This document shows positions 5,109 through 28,370 of a stretch of 32,000 bases of DNA, piece by piece. The DNA is from Lysinibacillus odysseyi (lineage in GTDB: Bacteria; Bacillota; Bacilli; Bacillales_A; Planococcaceae). The DNA lies in NCBI GenBank assembly GCA_014595895.1, contig JABUKB010000002.1:152770-184769 (forward strand), read 5' to 3'. The notes beneath the pieces are model-generated. The model did not search any database. It was given only the letters and a program-made list of their open reading frames with translations, and was not told the origin of the DNA. The position numbers were made by a program, and so were the translations under genes. How positions within the stretch are numbered: position 1 is the stretch's first letter; the number at the start of each line of letters is the position of its first letter.

Positions 5109-5280
5109 ATGGACCAATGAAAAGGTACTTTTGAGTGGATTTGGCAATCCAAGGATGGTCATTGGTTTCAGGCTGAACTCCAAAACATTCTATATACTTT
5201 CACACATGCTAAGCATGATGAAACACTTAATAATGCAAAAGCTTTCACTCAAACTAGTTAAGATCTATCATGAAAAGTCA

Positions 5281-18870: not shown

Positions 18871-18912
18871 AAAAAATCGAGCGTTTAATAGCGCTCGATT
18901 TTTTGTTTTTTT
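18871..18912 (+). terminator. rho-independent terminator of cysH-sat-cysC
   Basis: Perfect 13-bp stem AAAAAATCGAGCG (18871-18883) / CGCTCGATTTTTT (18892-18904), with the T-run continuing to 18912. Confidence 0.7.
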
Positions 18913-18916
18913 CAAT

Positions 18917-18951
18917 ATAAAAAACCTCCTAATCGTTTTAATTAGAAGGTT
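18917..18951 (-). terminator. ssrA-type terminator hairpin left beyond the partial ssrA copy
   Basis: CCTCCTAAT (18925-18933) / ATTAGAAGG (18941-18949); on the minus strand it is followed by TTTTTT (complement of 18919-18924). A homologous hairpin sits downstream of the intact ssrA at 26572-26604. Confidence 0.55.
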
Positions 18952-19083
18952 AAATAAACTGCATTCAATTATATGTAATTCACCAAAAAGAAAAGACATT
19001 ATCCAATGGGTAATACACCCTTGAATAACACCTTAACTGTTAAAAACGTTGATATACCGCCATTTCTGACGACTACCTATGTA

Positions 19084-19183
19084 TGGAGACGGCGGGAGTC
19101 GAACCCGCGTCCAGAAACTCCAATACTCCAGCTTCTACGCGTGTAGTTTGCCTATTTGCAATTCGCGAGTCTTTATGCCGACA
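19084..19183. repeat. direct repeat: duplicated 3' end of ssrA (distal att site of the island)
   Basis: 19084-19171 is identical at all 88 nt to 26738-26825. 10 of the next 12 nt also match (TTTATGCCGACA vs CGTATGCCGACA). Confidence 0.92.
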
Positions 19184-19308
19184 CCTAGAACGACAAGGGT
19201 TTACACACTTTTTAGCCGCGCTCATTTCAACTATTTTTATCCACTAGGGAGTATTACATATTTACGAACTTGGTTCAAAGACCGTCGAGTTAATTGTACC
19301 ATACATAT

Positions 19309-20319
19309 TTATTTGTTAACGTGCTTATTTAACTCTTCTCGTACTATATCCCTTGTTAATTTTCCTAATACCTTCTTTTTATCATCTATGGGTTCATTAA
19401 ACAGAGAATTATGTAATTCTCTTTCATCTTTAAAAATTAAGGTATTAGAAAAAGCTAATTGTTGTAAATATACTTCGTTATAAATCAAGCCTTTTTTTAT
19501 AATATCTTGTACATAGAACTTATGAAATTCATTATAAATTTTTTCAAGATGAAATAATGTTATATTGCCCTTGATTTTTTTACCATAATACTCCTCTTTT
19601 TCATCATAATCAAAAATTATATTAAAATCTTCATTCACACCTAGTATAGTCGCTACATAATCTTCGAGACCTGAGTTATTATCAGATATAAGTTCTTCAG
19701 ATTTAACAATCTTTCTTTTTATGTTTATTCGTTCACTAATTTCTTTCTCAAATGGGGAATAATGCGTTCGCAAACTAACTGATTGTTTATTTTTTAAGTC
19801 TGAATTACAAACTTTACAAGATGGCACTAAGTTATACAACGAAAGTGCCAATAATGGATATGAGGCTTTATCAAAGAAATGGTCAAGAGTAGCACGTGTC
19901 CTTCCTTCGGAACTTTCATATATAAATGTAAACTGAGAATTACAATAAGGACATACCATTATCTCTAGTTCTTTTAAATATTTATATGCATTCCATTCTG
20001 CTGCTTTCCCAAAATATTTATATTCATCTATAAAAATTTCCAACTTATCTGAGATATATTTTTTATCTTCAACGGAAAGTGATTTTAACATCTTTTCATA
20101 TTGATTCACAGCAATATCCAATATTTCTAAATTACCAATGATAATCTCTTCTAAATTATCTAATATCCACCTAAAAACACGTTTAAGAACTACCTGTTTT
20201 TCTTCGTCAACAATCTTTTTTAACTTTTTATATAGCCTTTCATTCTTATTTTTGTTACTACCAAAAACTAATTTCTTATGACTTTCTAAAATAGTATCAT
20301 TTAAAATAAGTTCAATCAT
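19309..20319 (-). CDS. ptuB: HNH endonuclease-domain protein (PtuB-like, Septu-type partner)
   Basis: HNH motif CPYCNSQF-x14-ATLDHFFDKASYP-x9-NLVPSCKVCNSDLKNK in mid-protein. Preferred start is ATG 20319 (AGGTGA SD, complement of 20331-20336), which overlaps the upstream gene's stop as ATGATTGA. GTG 20334 (ORF-track start) is the alternative. Confidence 0.65.
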   Translation of the reverse strand: MIELILNDTILESHKKLVFGSNKNKNERLYKKLKKIVDEEKQVVLKRVFRWILDNLEEIIIGNLEILDIAVNQYEKMLKSLSVEDKKYISDKLEIFIDEYKYFGKAAEWNAYKYLKELEIMVCPYCNSQFTFIYESSEGRTRATLDHFFDKASYPLLALSLYNLVPSCKVCNSDLKNKQSVSLRTHYSPFEKEISERINIKRKIVKSEELISDNNSGLEDYVATILGVNEDFNIIFDYDEKEEYYGKKIKGNITLFHLEKIYNEFHKFYVQDIIKKGLIYNEVYLQQLAFSNTLIFKDERELHNSLFNEPIDDKKKVLGKLTRDIVREELNKHVNK

Positions 20320-22126
20320 GTGATTGGTTTTCACCTAGCTTTTTCAAATCATTTATTTTCATTTCAAAAATATCAATTAGTTCTATTAAATCTTGTGACT
20401 CAAATAACTTTAATTTACTTTTGTATATGTCATAAACCTTATTTCTTAAGATTGGTTCTCCTATTAAGTCAATAAATTTGATTATACTCTCTCTCTCTTT
20501 ATAAACTTTTGTTGGAGAAGCTTCTAAAAGCCATCTAATACAACTATTTATTCTTTCTTTTGCAAATTGCCCTATTAAACCTTCTTTAATGAAAAAAGAA
20601 TTTGATAGTAACTCACTTATATTAGCTGCAAAAGTTCTTGGACTTCCTTCTAGTTCTTTTATAGTATCATTATTTATTTCTTTTTCTTTTGTTAGGAAAG
20701 TAACATTAGTATTGGGAATATCAGATAATACGAATGGTGAATGTGTAGTAAGAATAACTTGTATATTTCCTTCAAAAATAACATCTACCATCTTAACAAA
20801 GTAATATAACCAATCCTTTTGTAACTGAGGGTGAAAGTATAAATCTCCTTCATCAATTAGCAATAAAAAGGAATCATATTCCCCTGGTTTTATTAACTTT
20901 TCTATTACATAAGCAAAACGAGAAAATAAAGTAAGAAAACTAAATTGACCACTACTTAATTCCAACCATGAAAATTTTAAAAACTCATAATCTAAAAACT
21001 CATCAATATATAAATTTATAAATTCTTTTGAATTAGATAATGTACCATCAATTTCTATGTATTCATACATCAAGTCTTCTCCAGTTAATAAATCCACACT
21101 ATAATCCGTTCGTAATTTTATTCTTAAATTTGAAAATAAATTATAGAGATTGAGATATCTATTTGCTAATACATCTACTTCTTTCATAAATTTTAAGCTG
21201 GCAAATAGTTCACTGGCTGATTCATTTATTTTATGCTTTATTAAATTCATAAAGTCTTTTTCACTTTTAGCATTTTTTATAGCTGATGATAAAATTTCTC
21301 GTAATTCTTCAAGAGAAATACCAATACTTGATTCTATAAGTATATTTTCAACTTCTAACATAAAACTTTCAATAAAGTTCAATTGGAAAACCTTTTTAAA
21401 ACTTGTACTTTTTTTAAGATTATTACTTCTAAATATATTTATTTCATAGTTATTTAGGTATCTATAATCTTTTCTTTTAGCGTTTACCTTGTTTTCAATT
21501 TTAATTCTTGAAGGTAACTCTATTATTCTATTGATATCATATTTATTTTTATATTTATTAACAAAGAAAATTTGTTTCTGTAATTCTTCATGTATAAATT
21601 CATTTACATTTTCATGTCTACTTAATAATGCATTTGTAGATATATTTACTATTTCATCAGTATCTTCTGAGAAATTGCTATTTAAATATCTTACATCAAA
21701 TATATTTGAAAAGAATATTGTTAAATAATTTGGGTGGTAAAAGTTTCTTGTTTCTATGTTGAATGTTTTATTCCCTAGAAATTCAATTTTCATATCATTT
21801 GAAAATCTGTAGTCTTTATATATTTTTTTATTATTCGAATAAATTATCAGATAATCATTTAATCCAGAATCGGTCATAAGGTTCACCAAAAAATCTAATA
21901 TAGTTGATTTACCCGAACCATTTTCCCCAACAAATGCAGATATATCAAAATTTCCAATACCACTATTTTTCAAACTATTTTTAAAAAAGTCCGATATGTA
22001 AATATCGTTCTCTTTTACTGTCAATGAATCATTCCCATCAAAATGAAAATTGTACCTACTTCCAAAATTAGCTTGAAAATTATTTATTGCTTTATATTTT
22101 TTAAACCATATAAATAGAATTTGCAT
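20312..22126 (-). CDS. ptuA: ABC/SMC-type ATPase (AAA_15/AAA_21-like; PtuA-like)
   Basis: 604 aa with GGAGGAG SD. Walker A GENGSGKST, ABC signature LSSGQ, Walker B LLLIDEGDLYFHP, H-loop ILTTHSP. A long, poorly conserved insert separates the N- and C-terminal ATPase halves. Confidence 0.7.
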   Translation of the reverse strand: MQILFIWFKKYKAINNFQANFGSRYNFHFDGNDSLTVKENDIYISDFFKNSLKNSGIGNFDISAFVGENGSGKSTILDFLVNLMTDSGLNDYLIIYSNNKKIYKDYRFSNDMKIEFLGNKTFNIETRNFYHPNYLTIFFSNIFDVRYLNSNFSEDTDEIVNISTNALLSRHENVNEFIHEELQKQIFFVNKYKNKYDINRIIELPSRIKIENKVNAKRKDYRYLNNYEINIFRSNNLKKSTSFKKVFQLNFIESFMLEVENILIESSIGISLEELREILSSAIKNAKSEKDFMNLIKHKINESASELFASLKFMKEVDVLANRYLNLYNLFSNLRIKLRTDYSVDLLTGEDLMYEYIEIDGTLSNSKEFINLYIDEFLDYEFLKFSWLELSSGQFSFLTLFSRFAYVIEKLIKPGEYDSFLLLIDEGDLYFHPQLQKDWLYYFVKMVDVIFEGNIQVILTTHSPFVLSDIPNTNVTFLTKEKEINNDTIKELEGSPRTFAANISELLSNSFFIKEGLIGQFAKERINSCIRWLLEASPTKVYKERESIIKFIDLIGEPILRNKVYDIYKSKLKLFESQDLIELIDIFEMKINDLKKLGENQSHD

Positions 22127-22624
22127 AGTTAATTACTCCTCCTAATAGAACCATTATACATTATTTCCCACGCACGAATTGTGCACAAAAAAATCACTGT
22201 GTATATTTTACATTCACTTATCCATAGTACAGCTCCCCCTATCCCCTAGGGTAGGGCTTATGCTATATTTCATTTGAACAATTTTGTATAATTACTAACT
22301 CAATTACATCTTGTATTAGTAGAACTATTTTATTTTTCAGTTACCATTTGCATTGCCTGAGATTTACCATTCAGTATCCCCCTTACCTTGATTCCTATTT
22401 GTTTAGTTGCCATGACTTTTAGTATTTCTTCTATATAGAGAACGCATGGATACTCTGATATCTTTTGAATATGGTTATGACAGGAGTTAAATACTTTTAT
22501 TGACAGTATATTGTTTAAAACTCTAATGGTAATTTAATTTATAACATTTTTACCAAAATTAATTAAAATATTATCTTTATTAATATATTATAAAGATAAA
22601 TATTTATTTAGGAGGAGAAATACT

Positions 22625-23269
22625 ATGATTTACAATACACATTCATTTAGGTATGGATTGGACTTATTCCAAACTAATCCACAGTTTACAGAGCTTTGGA
22701 ATGAAATTCAGTCTGTACTAGATAACATTACTGATCAGGATTTAATAAATTATTATAATGCTAATTCTAGAACATCAAAGAAAAGCCTATCCGAAGCTAT
22801 AAATACATTGATTGATGAACGATTAGTAGCATTACAATGGACTCGTCAAAGTCCAATATTTAATAATTCTGAGTATAGACCTACAAGTAGAAATAGATGG
22901 TGGACACTTGATTTCACAAAAGAATCTTTAGCGGTAGAAGTAGCATTTAATCATGGTGAAGCTGTAGCTTGGAATCTAATTAAACCTGTACTTTCGAGTG
23001 AATTAAATCATGTTGAAAAAGCAATTCAAACTCATGCCGGAGTAATAATTACGGCAAAAGATTCACTTAAACGTGCAGGGAATTTTGATAGTTCCATTGG
23101 CACTTACGAAAAATTCCTACAATACTTAGCGCCTTTTAGAAATATTTTATCGGTACCAATGGTAATTATCGGTCTAGATGCACCTGAAACATTTATTATT
23201 GACCGAACAACAAAAGAAGTTAGTTATATAGAACCACAATTAGAAACCCAATATAACCTATTTGATTAA
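22625..23269 (+). CDS. BglII/BamHI-family type II restriction endonuclease-like protein (214 aa), no cognate methyltransferase nearby
   Basis: GGAGGAG SD 7 nt upstream. As far as I recall BglII, similarity runs end to end: N-terminal NPQ..W.EI, WTLDFTKESLAVEVAF vs BglII TDIDFGKRDTLVEVQF (D-x8-E-x-Q/A catalytic spacing), and AGVIITAK / VPMVIIGL vs VAIIITKG / VPIRLVGL. Confidence 0.55.
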   Translation: MIYNTHSFRYGLDLFQTNPQFTELWNEIQSVLDNITDQDLINYYNANSRTSKKSLSEAINTLIDERLVALQWTRQSPIFNNSEYRPTSRNRWWTLDFTKESLAVEVAFNHGEAVAWNLIKPVLSSELNHVEKAIQTHAGVIITAKDSLKRAGNFDSSIGTYEKFLQYLAPFRNILSVPMVIIGLDAPETFIIDRTTKEVSYIEPQLETQYNLFD

Positions 23270-23271
23270 GT

Positions 23272-23330
23272 AAATAAAAATAAGCTGCCACTAGTTATAT
23301 AGACTAATGACAGCTTCTTTTATATTTTGG
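23272..23330. terminator. bidirectional terminator between the convergent nuclease genes
   Basis: Imperfect 14-bp stem (23282-23295 / 23301-23316) flanked by an A-run on the left and CTTTTATATTTT on the right. Confidence 0.5.
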
Positions 23331-24333
23331 CTCTATAAACAGTAGGCCGCAAGTTAAGTGAGTTTTCAAGGTTACCTTCTACTCTAAAAAACTTCCCTGA
23401 ATTTGATTTATGGTCATAATGATAGACTCTATACAATTCATAGTTACTTGGATACTCTGAAGAAAATGCCAGTTCATTTGCAGTTATTATAAAAGGTGTA
23501 TTAATGCCACCTTTTGTAGTTTTAACTTCAATATATAATGATGTGTTATCATCTTTAATTAGCTCTATATCGTATCCTGCGCCATCTCCTTCTATGACAG
23601 AAGTATGAATGACTTTATTTACATCATATCCCAGATTATTTATTAGATAATCTACAACCAGTAATTCCCCTTTTAGACCTAGTTCACGATTCCTTTCACC
23701 ATTCTCAGCATAATCAGGTTTGGAAGTATGAAAGTTTCTTGATGTATTACTTGTATCTAGCACCGGATTGGGCCTTTGGGTTTCAGTTAAATGGTCACTG
23801 GTAATATCATCATTTTGATTAATTAATGTATTTAGTGTTAAGTCCATTCTAGCTAATATACTAGAAGGAGGGATTTCCCAATCCACAATCTGCCATTTAA
23901 AATAAACCGGCTGTTCTCTTGTAATATCATGTGTTACATAGGCTAACCTTCCTAAATAAGTAAAAGGTTCAACTTGTTTAGTTAAATTATTTTTTTTCTT
24001 AGTTCTTAAGAAAAGGTATATATTATCTACTAAATGGTTATGGTTAATCAGTTGTAAAATTATCTCATTATTTAAAGTCTGTTTAGGTTGTGATTGCCAA
24101 GTCAATATACCATCTTCAGTAATACTTTCATCGAAATCATGCCCTAGTTGTTTTTGGCCAAATGTAACAAAAAACACAAAATCTTTTTTCCTTTTAGGAA
24201 TCTTAACAAGTCCATGTATTCCCCAAGTCCCTGATCCAGTTGTAAAAGAGGTTACACCATCAAATATCTTGTACACATCTTCTCTGGAATATTGTTCGTA
24301 TAACTTTAATGGTTTAACTGACAAAATCTTCAC
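23320..24333 (-). CDS. fusion protein: N-terminal DUF3427-like domain + C-terminal DUF3883-like PD-(D/E)xK nuclease domain (candidate modification-dependent nuclease)
   Basis: GTG start at 24333 with AGGAAAGG upstream. N-terminal half: YSREDVYKIF..FVFFVTFGQ..ILTWQSQPKQ..IYLFLRTKK..FTYLGRL..VYFKWQIVDWEIP matches my recollection of DUF3427. C-terminal half: LGLKGELLVVDYL..GAGYDIELIK..LYIEVKTTKG..FIITANELAFS..YELYRVY matches DUF3883 (D..EVK nuclease motif). Confidence 0.6.
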   Translation of the reverse strand: MKILSVKPLKLYEQYSREDVYKIFDGVTSFTTGSGTWGIHGLVKIPKRKKDFVFFVTFGQKQLGHDFDESITEDGILTWQSQPKQTLNNEIILQLINHNHLVDNIYLFLRTKKKNNLTKQVEPFTYLGRLAYVTHDITREQPVYFKWQIVDWEIPPSSILARMDLTLNTLINQNDDITSDHLTETQRPNPVLDTSNTSRNFHTSKPDYAENGERNRELGLKGELLVVDYLINNLGYDVNKVIHTSVIEGDGAGYDIELIKDDNTSLYIEVKTTKGGINTPFIITANELAFSSEYPSNYELYRVYHYDHKSNSGKFFRVEGNLENSLNLRPTVYRAKI

Positions 24334-24381
24334 CCTTTCCTATCTTCCCAATCACTATTTATCGTTCAGCGTCCTCTTATT

Positions 24382-24390
24382 ATTATAACA
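24382..24390 (-). promoter_or_regulatory. extended -10 element (TGTTATAAT) upstream of the DUF3427-DUF3883 gene
   Basis: The complement of 24382-24390 reads TGTTATAAT (TGnTATAAT consensus), about 50 nt upstream of the GTG start. Confidence 0.35.
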
Positions 24391-24436
24391 ACTTAAATAT
24401 CCAGTAAAAGTAGTAATAAGTACATTTGAATAAAAT

Positions 24437-24952
24437 TTATTCTAAACAATCAATAACTTCTTCGTACTCAGTATCTTCAAAGATATAAGTATCTGAATCG
24501 ACAAAAACTTTATCTACATAACAATTAACAGGATTATATACACACATACTATGATTTCCTCCCTTATTCAACTTCACAGCTTTTAATAATTTTTTACCAC
24601 CAAATTCCATATTAACTAATGATGTATTAACGGTTTTCCCCACCTGTTGCCTAGAAATACCCACTAACTCACCAATCTTTTCTTGTGAAATCCATGAATA
24701 TCCATCGTTATCAGTAAAACTTGCTATTACTAATAGAATTTTTAGAGCTGTGGGGGAAAGCTCCTTCAATCCCCCACTAGCTATATAATCCTTATCTAAA
24801 GAAACAAATACTTTGAATTTTTCCTGATCATTCTTATCTTGTGTACAGTATAATTTAATGAAAGGTTGTTGTTCTATTTCATCTTTTGTATATGTACTTG
24901 AAATATATTGTTTAGCTTTATTAATTAATTTATTATCAATCTTGTTAGCCAC
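24437..24952 (-). CDS. winged-helix/HTH DNA-binding protein (171 aa), island regulator or replication-initiator-like
   Basis: GTG start at 24952 with a GGAGG SD 8 nt upstream. LSPTALKILLVIASFTDNDGYSWISQEKIGELVGISRQQVGKTV is a typical wHTH segment of phage/plasmid Rep- or DnaD-like proteins. Acidic C-terminus. Confidence 0.5.
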   Translation of the reverse strand: MANKIDNKLINKAKQYISSTYTKDEIEQQPFIKLYCTQDKNDQEKFKVFVSLDKDYIASGGLKELSPTALKILLVIASFTDNDGYSWISQEKIGELVGISRQQVGKTVNTSLVNMEFGGKKLLKAVKLNKGGNHSMCVYNPVNCYVDKVFVDSDTYIFEDTEYEEVIDCLE

Positions 24953-24968
24953 TCTAAATTCCTCCTGT

Positions 24969-25304
24969 TTAATTACTAACTGCTAATTCAGAATAAATAA
25001 TGTAAACTGTATCACCTAACAATTGTTTTTCATCAACAATTTCCAAAACTGATACCCCAAACAATGTTTTATTAAGTAACTTATCATTTATAATTTCTAC
25101 TAAAGCATCTTCTTTCATTTTAGTAACTGCTAACAGGCTTTCTACATCTAAAATTCCATATCCATTATCATCACAATTTTTTAATATAGCTTTTGATACT
25201 GTAATACACTCATCTTCTAAATATTTATGTACAATACAATCATCAAAAAATTTCTCTAAAAATTCCTCATGTGTGTAACCTACATAATAATAATTTAATC
25301 CCAT
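24969..25304 (-). CDS. hypothetical acidic protein (111 aa)
   Basis: ATG at 25304 with an AGGAG SD. Its stop lies inside the SD region of the downstream wHTH gene, suggesting an operon. No family recognised. Confidence 0.45.
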   Translation of the reverse strand: MGLNYYYVGYTHEEFLEKFFDDCIVHKYLEDECITVSKAILKNCDDNGYGILDVESLLAVTKMKEDALVEIINDKLLNKTLFGVSVLEIVDEKQLLGDTVYIIYSELAVSN

Positions 25305-25361
25305 TTTGTAACAACTCCTAAATTTATTTATTGTGTTATTTTGATGCTTGGGCTTTATAAT

Positions 25362-25392
25362 CTTTATACTCTTTCAACCCTTTATACTCTTT
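25362..25392. repeat. 13-nt direct repeat x2 (CTTTATACTCTTT) with an 18-nt period
   Basis: Exact copies at 25362-25374 and 25380-25392, plus a degenerate third copy GCTTTATAATC at 25352-25362. They sit 58-90 nt upstream of the 111-aa ORF (minus strand). Confidence 0.7.
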
Positions 25393-25480
25393 AGTGTCAA
25401 CTTTCCTTTCCCCCTGACATAGCTATAATTAGATAATGATTTAAAAGTGTGACATCCAAATAAAAAAATATTGTAGAAAT

Positions 25481-25507
25481 AAAAAAGAACCTAACTGATT
25501 AGCTAGG
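25481..25507 (-). terminator. putative terminator of the integrase gene
   Basis: On the minus strand CCTAGCT-AATC-AGTTAGG forms a 7-bp stem with one G-U pair, followed by TTCTTTTTTA. Confidence 0.4.
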
Positions 25508-25596
25508 CTCTAGGGTATCCCCAGGGGGATGGGATGTCTCATTCTGATACAAAACAAGGCATTATTTATTTTTTGTAGTCTCGGATATTCTCCTGA

Positions 25597-26571
25597 TCAT
25601 AGATAATCGCGTAAATTAGTTGCTACTTCATTAACATCTAAATCAAGGTATTGTGTTGTTACCTCTAAATTTGAATGTCCTAATGCTTTTGAAATTAATG
25701 CAATACTTGCCCCCTTACTATACAAATTCTTTGCATATGCGCGGCGAATTGCGTGAGCATTGATATTCTCTAAATTGAACCGCTTTGCATACTTGTGTAG
25801 CTGCTTTGAAATAGCACAATTAGAGGATTTACTATTATTCATCGGTGAGCCATTTTGAGTAATAAATATATAGTGGTTATCCATATCAAAATGAGCGCGG
25901 ATGCCATTGTTTAATTGAATAAGTAGCTTTAACATTTCTACTACCTCCTCATCAATCGGGAGCTTTAAAAACTTATGATTCTTTAATGTAGAACCATCTA
26001 GGTTCAAACAAAAATTTTCAAAGTCGATATGACGTTCTCTCAGCTCTCCTAATGTACGAATACGGATACCTGTCTTATACATTAATTTAATAGCGGCGGC
26101 ATCCCTAAAACCAATAAAGGTTGTTTGGTCAATTAACTGTAAAAGCTTTTCTATATCAGATTGCCGCGCTCCCTTTTTTACTTCCTTATCAATTTTAATT
26201 TGAATGTTGCTCCAGAAACGGTCTTTTACCCATCCATTGTTATAAAACTTGCTCAGTACCGCTTTAATCGACTTCAAGCGTATTAGTTTAGTCGCGGGAG
26301 TAACCGCTAGCACATCTAAGTAATGATAGAGCTTATCCAAGTTAATATCCTCTACATACTCAATACGGCAAACTCCAACAAACTGTTTAAAAATATATTC
26401 ATAACTTTCAATTGTGCGTGGTCTATTTCCAGCGATACGCATTTGATTAAATACTGTATCAAGTGCATAACTAATCTGCATACAATCATCTCTTGCATCC
26501 TTACTATTGGATAGAACAACTACATCACCATTTACCGCGAATATACCATGTTTTCGCTTTCTATTTACCAT
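25597..26571 (-). CDS. int: tyrosine-type site-specific integrase
   Basis: 324 aa. Catalytic motifs TGIRIRTLGEL (Arg), HAIRRAYAKNL (His-x-x-Arg) and LGHSNLEVTTQYL (His...Tyr). Adjacent to the intact ssrA. Confidence 0.9.
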   Translation of the reverse strand: MVNRKRKHGIFAVNGDVVVLSNSKDARDDCMQISYALDTVFNQMRIAGNRPRTIESYEYIFKQFVGVCRIEYVEDINLDKLYHYLDVLAVTPATKLIRLKSIKAVLSKFYNNGWVKDRFWSNIQIKIDKEVKKGARQSDIEKLLQLIDQTTFIGFRDAAAIKLMYKTGIRIRTLGELRERHIDFENFCLNLDGSTLKNHKFLKLPIDEEVVEMLKLLIQLNNGIRAHFDMDNHYIFITQNGSPMNNSKSSNCAISKQLHKYAKRFNLENINAHAIRRAYAKNLYSKGASIALISKALGHSNLEVTTQYLDLDVNEVATNLRDYL

Positions 26572-26604
26572 AGAAAAAACCTCCTAATATGTTTTATTAG
26601 AAGG
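26572..26604 (-). terminator. terminator of the intact ssrA; its 3' arm contains the integrase SD
   Basis: CCTCCTAAT (26580-26588) / ATTAGAAGG (26596-26604). The minus strand reads ...ATTAGGAGGTTTTTTCTATG, so AGGAGG forms the hairpin's 3' arm and the U-tract is the spacer to the int ATG (26571). Confidence 0.55.
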
Positions 26605-26737
26605 TCTTTGAATAAGCTCAAAATATGTAATTTCCATAGGGATAAGAAAAGGGATATTCAACAAGAGTTCAACCCCCGTTCAATATCCCTAGTCTGTTAA
26701 AACGTTGAAATGACTGCATTTACAGCCACTTATGTAA

Positions 26738-26837
26738 TGGAGACGGCGGGAGTCGAACCCGCGTCCAGAAACTCCAATACTCCAGCTTCTACGCGTGTAG
26801 TTTGCCTATTTGCAATTCGCGAGTCCGTATGCCGACA
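26738..26837. repeat. direct repeat: 3' end of the intact ssrA (proximal att site)
   Basis: Partner of 19084-19183 (88 nt identical, then 10/12). Confidence 0.92.
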
Positions 26838-26966
26838 AACAGGCGTCTAGATCGCTAGCTTGGAAATCTCTTGACGGTGACTCAAGCGGCACCACCGACC
26901 GTATCCCACTAAAGTTGGGCCCGACGTACTCTACATGGGCGATAGAGAGGCCGAGCGCTTAAGAGC

Positions 26967-26999
26967 TTACGCTGCTAAAGCTAAGTTTTGTTGTTTGCC
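26967..26999 (-). other. tmRNA tag-peptide reading frame, (A)GKQQNLALAA-stop
   Basis: The minus strand reads GGC AAA CAA CAA AAC TTA GCT TTA GCA GCG TAA directly after AACT. This is the same context as the resume codon in B. subtilis ssrA. Confidence 0.85.
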
Positions 27000-27233
27000 A
27001 GTTATTATATAACTTCCGTTGTTGACGAAGACGAGACCTCCGACGCGCAACCAGAGCTTGAACCATCCCTGTCGAATCCGTAACGTCCCCGAGTATAAAA
27101 CCCGAGTAAAGTTCGGTTAAGCAAATGCTTATAAAGTGTACCGTATGAGTAGATACACACTGGCAATCTGTATACTCATTATATGTCAGATTAGGTGAAA
27201 CATCAAGTAATTGCTACGATGCAAATCTTGCCA

Positions 27234-27314: not shown

Positions 27315-28370
27315 CTACCAGGCTACTGCACGCTTTTTGCGAATCCATGCAATGACGATAACGAAGATTAACACAAACCCTAAGTACCCCATTGTGGAAT
27401 ATACTTTACCCACTAAGTTTGTAAAACCTACTAAACTAGCAGCAAAACCTAATAAGCCGACAATCATAACAGCCGGTTTAAAGGCTTTTGATTTTGGTGG
27501 GAAGAAACGAACTGTAAAGGTATAGAACATCCCTACTGCCGTATTGTACATCATCCCCAGAAGAGCGAAAGACATTAAGACGCCAATGAAGGGATGGATT
27601 TGATTCGCTAACTCTAGTGTCGGCATATCTACCCCGCCGATCACATCGATTTTTACGAACATCGTAATATTGATGAGAATAATGAGTGCTCCCAGGAGGA
27701 TACCACCAATGATTCCACCACGACCTGCTACTTTCCGGTCTTTTTCCTCGCCACCCATGATGATGAGTAAAGCCGCGCCTGCAGCGATATTGTATGATAC
27801 ATATAAAATCGATCCTAACAGCCAGTGATCAGCAGCGGAATTTTGTTCTTTGGCTAACGCATCTGCCTGGGACCATGAAATATCCATTGTAAATAACGAG
27901 TAAATTAAAATAATAAAAATAATCGCCAATAAATATGGGGTAACCACTGCGATAATATTAAGAATGTTTTTTAAGTCCAGGAGTAACGTACTGATTACGA
28001 ACGCCACCATGATGATGCTCCCTACCATTGACGGCATACCGAACATTTGGCTGAATGTAGAGCCCGCTCCCGCAAACATCACGACAGCTACGCCAAATAA
28101 GAAAAACGTAATGATAAAATCTAAAATGGTACCAAGATAACGACCACCGATTTTGTAAATTACACCCTTATGCGAAGATTGTTGTAAATCGGAACCGAGC
28201 TGCGCTAAAGTCATTCCTAAAAAGGCAAAGACAAATGCTGCAACAATCCCCCCCATTAGCCCCATTACTCCGAAGCTTGTAAAATACTGCATGATTTCTT
28301 GACCTGAGGCAAATCCTGCACCAACAATCAGACCTACAAAGGCACCGCCTATTTGTAAACTTTTTCTCAT
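27315..28370 (-). CDS. YkvI-family membrane transporter (putative amino-acid carrier)
   Basis: 351-aa polytopic protein. The N-terminus GAFVGLIVGAGFASGQEIMQYF matches the YkvI signature. Confidence 0.7.
   Translation of the reverse strand: MRKSLQIGGAFVGLIVGAGFASGQEIMQYFTSFGVMGLMGGIVAAFVFAFLGMTLAQLGSDLQQSSHKGVIYKIGGRYLGTILDFIITFFLFGVAVVMFAGAGSTFSQMFGMPSMVGSIIMVAFVISTLLLDLKNILNIIAVVTPYLLAIIFIILIYSLFTMDISWSQADALAKEQNSAADHWLLGSILYVSYNIAAGAALLIIMGGEEKDRKVAGRGGIIGGILLGALIILINITMFVKIDVIGGVDMPTLELANQIHPFIGVLMSFALLGMMYNTAVGMFYTFTVRFFPPKSKAFKPAVMIVGLLGFAASLVGFTNLVGKVYSTMGYLGFVLIFVIVIAWIRKKRAVAW

Follow-up and report, generated by a model that had tools for sequence, protein, structure and literature searches.

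A 32,000-nucleotide stretch of the Lysinibacillus odysseyi genome (the window, by which the whole stretch analysed is meant) carries a type II restriction endonuclease gene, referred to here as the R gene and its product as the R protein, with none of the methylases that accompany its relatives. The R gene encodes a genuine homologue of the BglII/BstYI-fold restriction endonucleases, and the explanation that we hold with somewhat better than even confidence is that it is the intact restriction half of a 'separated' restriction-modification (R-M) system, in which the host would be guarded in trans by a 5-methylcytosine (m5C) methylase specific for GATC and encoded elsewhere. Trans protection is the most likely reading given the intactness of the gene, the purifying selection on it, a distal methylase in Solibacillus silvestris, the presence of related methylases in allied taxa, and a depletion of GATC.

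The assignment to the BglII fold comes from both profile and structure comparisons. The Pfam family PF09195 (Endonuc-BglII) matches residues 22–185 of the R protein over profile positions 11–163 of 163, with a score of 47.7 bits against a gathering cut-off of 26 (E 1.9e-12). An AlphaFold2 (AF2) model with 30 homologues as input (pLDDT 87, pTM 0.85) was compared by Foldseek with the Protein Data Bank (PDB), where the best match was BglII itself (1d2i, E 1e-10, TM 0.63); ranks 1–16 were occupied exclusively by BglII, BstYI, BamHI and OkrAI, all of them cutters of sites with a GATC core, and rank 17 stood at E 0.18. The resemblance to BglII that the initial annotation had seen in the 214-residue product, and for which it had proposed this comparison, is thus borne out. 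A PDB search by sequence returned BstYI alone and weakly (E 0.019 with the single sequence, 3.4e-4 with a profile) and did not reach BglII, for which the fold comparison was required; no NCBIfam model matched the R protein, and the PADLOC scan gave a weak, generic REase_II match (E 0.0014).

The catalytic positions D96, E105 and A107, which are located in ...TLDFTKESLAVEVAFNHGE..., have the D-x8-E-x-A arrangement first described for them, and HMMER pairs them with D119, E128 and Q130 of BstYI. The motifs of the subfamily read LDFxK...EVAFNHGE...WNLIKPVL, in which D96, E105 and K120 are candidate catalytic residues and either K120 or H110 may stand in for the missing glutamine of the third position. 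The protein consists of a single BglII-fold domain, and no modified-base reader domain was detected by Pfam or in the AF2 model.

A database search gave 1,642 homologues of the R protein, most of them ∼200 amino acids long. The subfamily occurs in more than six phyla, among them Bacillota, Actinomycetota, Campylobacterota, Bacteroidota, Patescibacteria and Proteobacteria, at identities of 41–70 per cent, a degree of conservation that is uncommon among type II restriction enzymes. Full-text searches of the literature returned no biochemical characterisation of the subfamily. A census of 164 R gene loci, drawn from genomes, metagenomes and look-ups and scored by tblastn, gives the normal neighbourhood of the gene: a C5-cytosine methylase (∼420 amino acids, PF00145 at 189–230 bits) is present in 139 loci and lies no more than 600 bp from the R gene in 126. 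Where at least 1.5 kb was available on both flanks the methylase was found in 89 of 92 loci (97 per cent), the three exceptions being L021, L153 and this window, and all five phage-borne copies of the R gene are likewise accompanied by one. Vsr, which commonly accompanies C5 methylases, occurs in 29 of the 164 loci, and a full-length Sau3AI homologue of ∼450 amino acids (E 3.6e-95 to PDB entry 4pxg) stands beside the same methylase in 20. In Rossellomorea these genes form a compact module in the order BglII-like endonuclease, methylase, Vsr and Sau3AI-like endonuclease.

Other loci that seemed to be methylase-less were dismissed as artefacts: nine are cut at a contig end next to the gene, in L008 and L042 the methylase lies beyond 6 kb or was missed by the open reading frame (ORF) filter, and L030, L049 and L067 hold methylase fragments at a contig edge. 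By these comparisons the subfamily is an ordinary restriction enzyme paired with a Sau3AI-type methylase, with the window copy a rare exception, and the description of the R gene as an orphan, a state atypical of its family, agrees with the census.

Some departures from the usual form of the protein were seen. Some homologues of ∼300 amino acids (such as P0049 and P0053) bear a conserved C-terminal extension of ∼95 residues (columns 232–325 of alignment A1). Bacillus mycoides has a second, longer PF09195 paralogue (258 amino acids, L088 16901–17677), which shares an island with the BglII-like gene and lies ∼6 kb downstream of it, and this paralogue is truncated to 82 amino acids in a sister strain (L089).

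The absence of a methylase from the window is supported by two kinds of search. No methyltransferase domain was detected by Pfam in 33 window ORFs, comprising 7 in the island that carries the R gene (E ≤0.1), 20 large ORFs of the flanks (E ≤0.001) and 6 leftover small or unannotated ORFs (E ≤1). A tblastn search of the 32 kb with 72 cognate-type methyltransferases, 12 Vsr proteins and 8 Sau3AI-like proteins gave nothing better than E 0.07, so that the C5 methyltransferase, the Sau3AI-like gene and Vsr, the three usual partners, are all missing. Both results uphold the earlier remark that neither the island nor the remainder of the window encodes a methyltransferase. The linked cognate methyltransferase of a classical type II R-M system, which nearly every fully flanked relative possesses, is lacking here.

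The initial annotation had considered that the protein, with alanine at its third catalytic position, could be catalytically altered. An alignment with 145 relatives speaks against this. It has 37 columns with a conservation of at least 95 per cent, and at each of them the R protein carries the consensus residue; D96, E105, N109 and K120 are invariant (100 per cent). Position 107 is alanine in 133 of the relatives, glycine in 10 and valine in 2, and because nearly all of these relatives are methylase-linked, Ala107 is to be taken as a trait of the subfamily rather than a lesion. Comparison with the S. silvestris copy gave a ratio of non-synonymous to synonymous divergence (dN/dS) of 0.116, and comparison with the copy in locus L094, which also has no adjacent methylase, one of 0.067 (dS ∼1.4); synonymous divergence (dS) in these comparisons spans 0.6–1.4. 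By these measures the R gene is intact and under strong purifying selection.

The system to which the gene would belong is predicted to be of the GATC/GAT5mC type. A GATC-containing target blocked by GAT5mC is suggested because one methylase guards against the Sau3AI homologue and the BglII-like enzyme alike, and curators assign this type of methylase to GATC (Lutz et al. 2019, PMC6765204). Nph3I, a characterised member of PF09195, also recognises a GATC core and cuts RGATCY (PMC10734518). Avoidance was measured in 1.29 Mb of flanking DNA around 85 loci that have the methylase plus the BglII-like R gene only; there, of all palindromic 4-mers, GATC shows the strongest depletion, with an observed-to-expected ratio (O/E) of 0.58 followed by CTAG at 0.72, and it ranks among the three most depleted in 57 of the 85 loci. 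The window itself holds 61 GATC sites where ∼101–108 would be expected. Its 24 kb of chromosomal flanks account for 57 of them (O/E ∼0.6–0.7), and the shortage is most marked in the island (19081–26736), with 4 observed against 17–20 expected. Three of these four island sites are TGATCA, one of them at 22733 within the R gene, and CGATCG does not occur in the island. Given 57 GATC sites in the flanks, an active and unprotected enzyme of this specificity would be lethal.

Related loci suggest how restriction and modification genes could have come apart. Among named organisms S. silvestris is the closest relative, its R protein being 87 per cent identical to that of the window, and the L094 protein is 86–89 per cent identical. 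In S. silvestris the R gene occupies an island adjacent to smpB and ssrA in which a C5 methylase (416 amino acids) and a Sau3AI-like gene stand 8.5 kb away, separated from it by an inserted three-gene helicase system. Comparable layouts, with the methylase ∼8.2 kb from the R gene, occur in B. mycoides and Bacillus sp. CH140a, and all three look like intermediate stages of a defence-island shuffling that parts the two genes. The S. silvestris island (L093) also retains a 23-codon remnant of the convergent neighbour of the R gene, a DUF3427/NOV_C protein, and since the two-gene block is intact in L094 the pair of R and NOV_C genes is taken to be ancestral to a small clade. In our reading this cassette, now known from at least three lineages, ended up in the window on a separate integrase island.

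The methylase that trans protection would call for is of a kind available to allied bacteria. Among the best 120 matches to the S. silvestris methylase are cognate-type methyltransferases of S. silvestris, S. isronensis and a Solibacillus metagenome-assembled genome, as well as those of many Caryophanaceae at 70 per cent identity or more. Of the explanations that the initial annotation had listed for an unaccompanied nuclease, protection encoded elsewhere is the best fit to these comparative data and to the distal methylase of S. silvestris. The proposed mechanism would have the R protein act as a homodimer that cuts unmethylated GATC, or palindromes with a GATC core, in incoming DNA, its cleavage being blocked by GAT5mC. 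The R gene would have been uncoupled from its methylase and carried, with a BwiMMI-like nuclease that reads 5-methylcytosine (5mC) beside it, as an R-only cassette in an island at ssrA, while the chromosome with its many GATC sites would be protected in trans by a distant GATC-m5C methylase.

Several considerations weigh against trans protection. The island is mobile and discrete and encodes an integrase of its own, so that the R gene would kill any recipient that lacked the methylation. No methylase has been found for this genome in a search that covered 32 kb of a contig of 286,867 bp. Promoter-like sites upstream of the R gene are no commoner than in shuffled sequence (9 in the spacer against 8.7 in shuffled controls). 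The GATC ratio of 0.58 lacks matched control genomes for comparison, the target-recognition domain of the methylase is only moderately conserved (mean pairwise identity 37 per cent), and the GATC specificity of the R protein is one that we infer from indirect evidence.

It is possible, though unlikely, that the R gene is instead a silent leftover, unexpressed or nearly so, the same shuffling having removed its methylase together with its promoter or control elements, in which case it would be tolerated and bound to decay. The lack of any methylase gene in 32 kb would agree with this, as would the upstream DNA. Homology to relatives begins only 41–48 bp before the ATG, and beyond 48 bp the sequence is unrelated to that of homologous loci. 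For the remaining spacer (22127–22576) neither DNA homology to a related locus nor an Rfam family was detected, blastx revealed no protein remnants, and the 498 bp between the R gene and its divergent neighbour (22127–22624) contain no ORF above 32 amino acids. This AT-rich region, which the initial annotation had offered as an unusually long control region, does exist as described; a special control role does not follow, as its last 41–48 bp alone are conserved, and it is best read as probable junction DNA between two independently acquired cassettes. The promoter-like matches at shuffled frequency fit a gene that has lost its promoter, and Ershova et al. propose this very fate for solitary type II R genes (PMC3488263). 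Against silence stand the low dN/dS ratios, found at considerable synonymous divergence between copies that share the uncoupled arrangement, and the want of a single substitution at the 37 near-invariant positions. The ORF is also unbroken, it has a terminator as well as a strong Shine-Dalgarno sequence, and the cassette has been kept in at least three lineages.

An improbable alternative, a form of which the initial annotation had also listed, is that the nuclease has a methylase-independent role. The genome would then have no GATC-modifying methylase, the nuclease would be held in check by other means, for example by repression with infection-triggered release or by its BwiMMI-like neighbour, and it would serve as an abortive-infection or toxin-type effector; if this were true, abortive infection would have co-opted a classical type II restriction fold, and the resulting effector would pass among defence islands methylase-free. 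The setting lends itself to such a view, in that the R gene is flanked, within a defence island, by a Septu-like system and a 5mC-reader nuclease, it forms with the DUF3427/NOV_C gene a convergent pair that L094 conserves and of which S. silvestris has a remnant, and L021 and L153, though fully flanked, are likewise without a methylase. The NOV_C pairing is limited to the small clade, however, with weak matches in 2 of ∼160 other loci, and the R protein is the same as its methylase-linked relatives at every conserved position. S. silvestris has the methylase in the same island, and no regulator, antitoxin-like gene or RNA element was found beside the R gene.

The neighbour itself belongs to the BwiMMI/EfaL9I/McaZI class of modification-dependent antiphage nucleases, members of which bind DNA with 5mC or 5-hydroxymethylcytosine and restrict phage T4gt (PMC6765204); a PDB sequence search with it returned nothing. 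Its presence fits a host that bears GAT5mC and is no proof of one.

The initial annotation had implied a BglII or RGATCY specificity, and it correctly placed AGATCT at 5261 and 11497 and RGATCY at 2400, to which 10 further RGATCY sites can be added. That the R protein is a true isoschizomer of BglII (AGATCT) or BstYI (RGATCY), with a hexamer-specific N4-methylcytosine (N4mC) or N6-methyladenine (N6mA) methylase elsewhere, seems quite improbable. Every characterised PF09195 member does cut a 6-bp site, BglII at AGATCT and both BstYI and Nph3I at RGATCY (PMC10734518), and the island contains no RGATCY. The partner methylase of the subfamily, however, is of the C5 type, neither N4 nor N6, and it is common to Sau3AI homologues and assigned to GATC as noted above. 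Depletion is found at the level of the 4-mer, with no palindromic NGATCN hexamer conspicuous (O/E 0.75–0.87) and AGATCC/GGATCT undepleted (1.03), and identity to BglII and BstYI is ∼20 per cent. Hardly credible is a methylation-dependent nuclease (type IIM or type IV) able to do without a protective methylase. Such an enzyme would suit the lack of a methylase in cis and the adjoining modification-dependent nuclease but was rejected on the 97 per cent methylase linkage, often with Vsr, and on the single BglII fold without a reader domain.

Features of the island and of the cassette shared with related loci, with positions in the window
Feature	Position	Strand	Remarks
R gene, type II restriction endonuclease, BglII/BstYI fold	22625–23269	+	ATG-to-stop ORF, 214 amino acids
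Shine-Dalgarno sequence AGGAGG of the R gene	22610–22615	+	9 nt before the ATG, read directly
Cassette in common with the Solibacillus silvestris ssrA island	22577–23437		82 per cent DNA identity (blastn); gene with 48 bp upstream and 168 bp downstream
Two-gene block (R gene and convergent DUF3427/NOV_C gene) in common with L094	22584–24334		80 per cent DNA identity
Non-conserved AT-rich spacer, bulk of the initially proposed control region	22127–22576
14-bp-stem hairpin followed by a T-run, between the convergent R and NOV_C genes	23282–23316	− (strand as called by the scan)
DUF3427 and NOV_C (DUF3883) protein, 337 amino acids, convergent with the R gene	23320–24333	−	PADLOC PDC-S36, E 1.5e-37
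PDC-M62A, 604-residue Septu/PtuA-like ABC ATPase, divergent from the R gene	20312–22126	−	E 2.7e-176
PDC-M62B, 341-residue PtuB-like HNH nuclease, partner of PDC-M62A	19309–20334	−	E 8.1e-127
Two small island genes: 171-residue HTH_36 protein and 111-residue protein of no assigned function	24437–25304	−
Tyrosine recombinase (integrase) of the island	25597–26571	−
Transfer-messenger RNA (tmRNA) gene ssrA, integration target	26735–27090	−	Tag peptide GKQQNLALAA
Far-end att repeat	18909–19183		tmRNA 3'-end copy 19082–19183 plus ∼175 bp of downstream sequence; 78 per cent identical to 26564–26837

The island is an integrase-bearing element of ∼7.6 kb inserted in ssrA, with a low GC content (23–32 per cent against 35–46 per cent in the flanks). 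The direct repeat that bounds it is 275 bp long and extends ∼175 bp past the tmRNA 3' end, exceeding a simple att core, and Rfam reports a weak, partial tmRNA at 19091–19375; this suggests successive or tandem integrations at ssrA. PDC-M62A and PDC-M62B form a Septu-like pair, start and stop overlapping by 23 bp, and are a candidate independent two-gene defence system. A close relative of the integrase, in the same 90 per cent identity cluster, is found in another element (L172 1–10756) with a cI/Cro-like helix-turn-helix pair, a RelA_SpoT protein and a weak small-terminase match. That element looks like a phage satellite, and the integrase module is thus common to elements with differing cargo. 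Directly past ssrA is a 351-residue ORF at 27315–28370 (minus strand) that has no Pfam match at E ≤1. Unlike in S. silvestris, smpB is not adjacent to ssrA in the window; the sensor kinase of the host is 87 per cent identical to its S. silvestris counterpart, and the analysis assigned the host to Solibacillus.

Two further gene blocks were observed among the related loci. The three-gene system inserted in S. silvestris (L093 3356–9639) recurs in Bacillus sp. AK128 (L090 12361–18635) and consists of proteins of ∼820 and ∼428 amino acids and a PLD/SNF2-helicase of ∼850 amino acids; in both genomes it adjoins GATC R-M genes. A four-gene block, encoding proteins of ∼75, ∼650 and ∼285 amino acids and a DUF6339 protein of ∼260 amino acids, lies within GATC-m5C R-M clusters of Intestinibacter bartlettii (L002 2731–6533) and B. 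mycoides (L088 11715–15555) and may be an unnamed defence module.

If trans protection holds, the window provides a natural example of a type II R gene that is selected for while physically apart from its methylase and on a mobile island. Defence islands could then trade R genes alone among lineages with a common methylome, which in the case of Solibacillus and its relatives would be GAT5mC, and resident methylation would be a prerequisite for gaining the R gene. There is also a practical lesson for annotation: 'orphan' R genes should be judged by the normal neighbourhood of their family over at least 10 kb, because two apparent orphans (S. silvestris and Bacillus sp. CH140a) had a methylase ∼8 kb away. 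What may interest specialists is that purifying selection was measured on an uncoupled gene, that this gene is borne by a discrete mobile island, and that its subfamily is widespread and apparently uncharacterised; with its BglII fold, non-canonical third catalytic position and C5 partner, the subfamily is a reasonable target for enzymology.

The separation of an R gene from its methylase is uncommon, yet it is an already recognised situation. Of the 272 solitary R genes in one survey, 57 were predicted to have a distant methylase and 99 were fragments, and the explanations given for the other 116 were only tentative; the separated systems proven functionally were all of type I, with type II candidates awaiting experimental proof (Ershova et al. 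2012, PMC3488263). The R gene resembles the solitary type II class of that study (∼21 cases) in being full length, in having no methylase or methylase fragment nearby, and in being orthologous to the R genes of complete systems. It differs in that purifying selection has been measured in the uncoupled state, in that the gene sits on a discrete mobile island, and in that an intermediate state with the methylase 8 kb away is seen in S. silvestris.

With BglII, BstYI and Nph3I the R protein shares the fold (Foldseek E 1e-10 to 1e-8, TM ∼0.6), membership of PF09195 and the D-x8-E spacing on the same strands, and its structural relatives all recognise a GATC core. At ∼20 per cent identity it departs from them in having Ala, Gly or Val in place of Gln at the third position, and its subfamily has, in addition to what BglII and BstYI possess, an invariant N109-H110 and K120. 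The subfamily is partnered by a C5 methylase rather than one forming N4mC or N6mA, its predicted target is the 4-bp GATC rather than a hexamer, and the window copy has no linked methylase at all. A further comparison is with the Sau3AI-type GATC/GAT5mC clusters of Bacillota, which combine a C5 methyltransferase and a Sau3AI-like endonuclease with or without Vsr and with or without a DUF3427–DUF3883 nuclease (Lutz et al. 2019, PMC6765204). Relatives of the R gene are components of such clusters in Rossellomorea, B. mycoides, S. silvestris and Intestinibacter, and the BwiMMI-like neighbour is kept in the window. Unlike those clusters, the window carries the BglII-like endonuclease and the 5mC-reader nuclease only, as the cargo of an integrase island, and lacks the methylase, the Sau3AI-like gene and Vsr.

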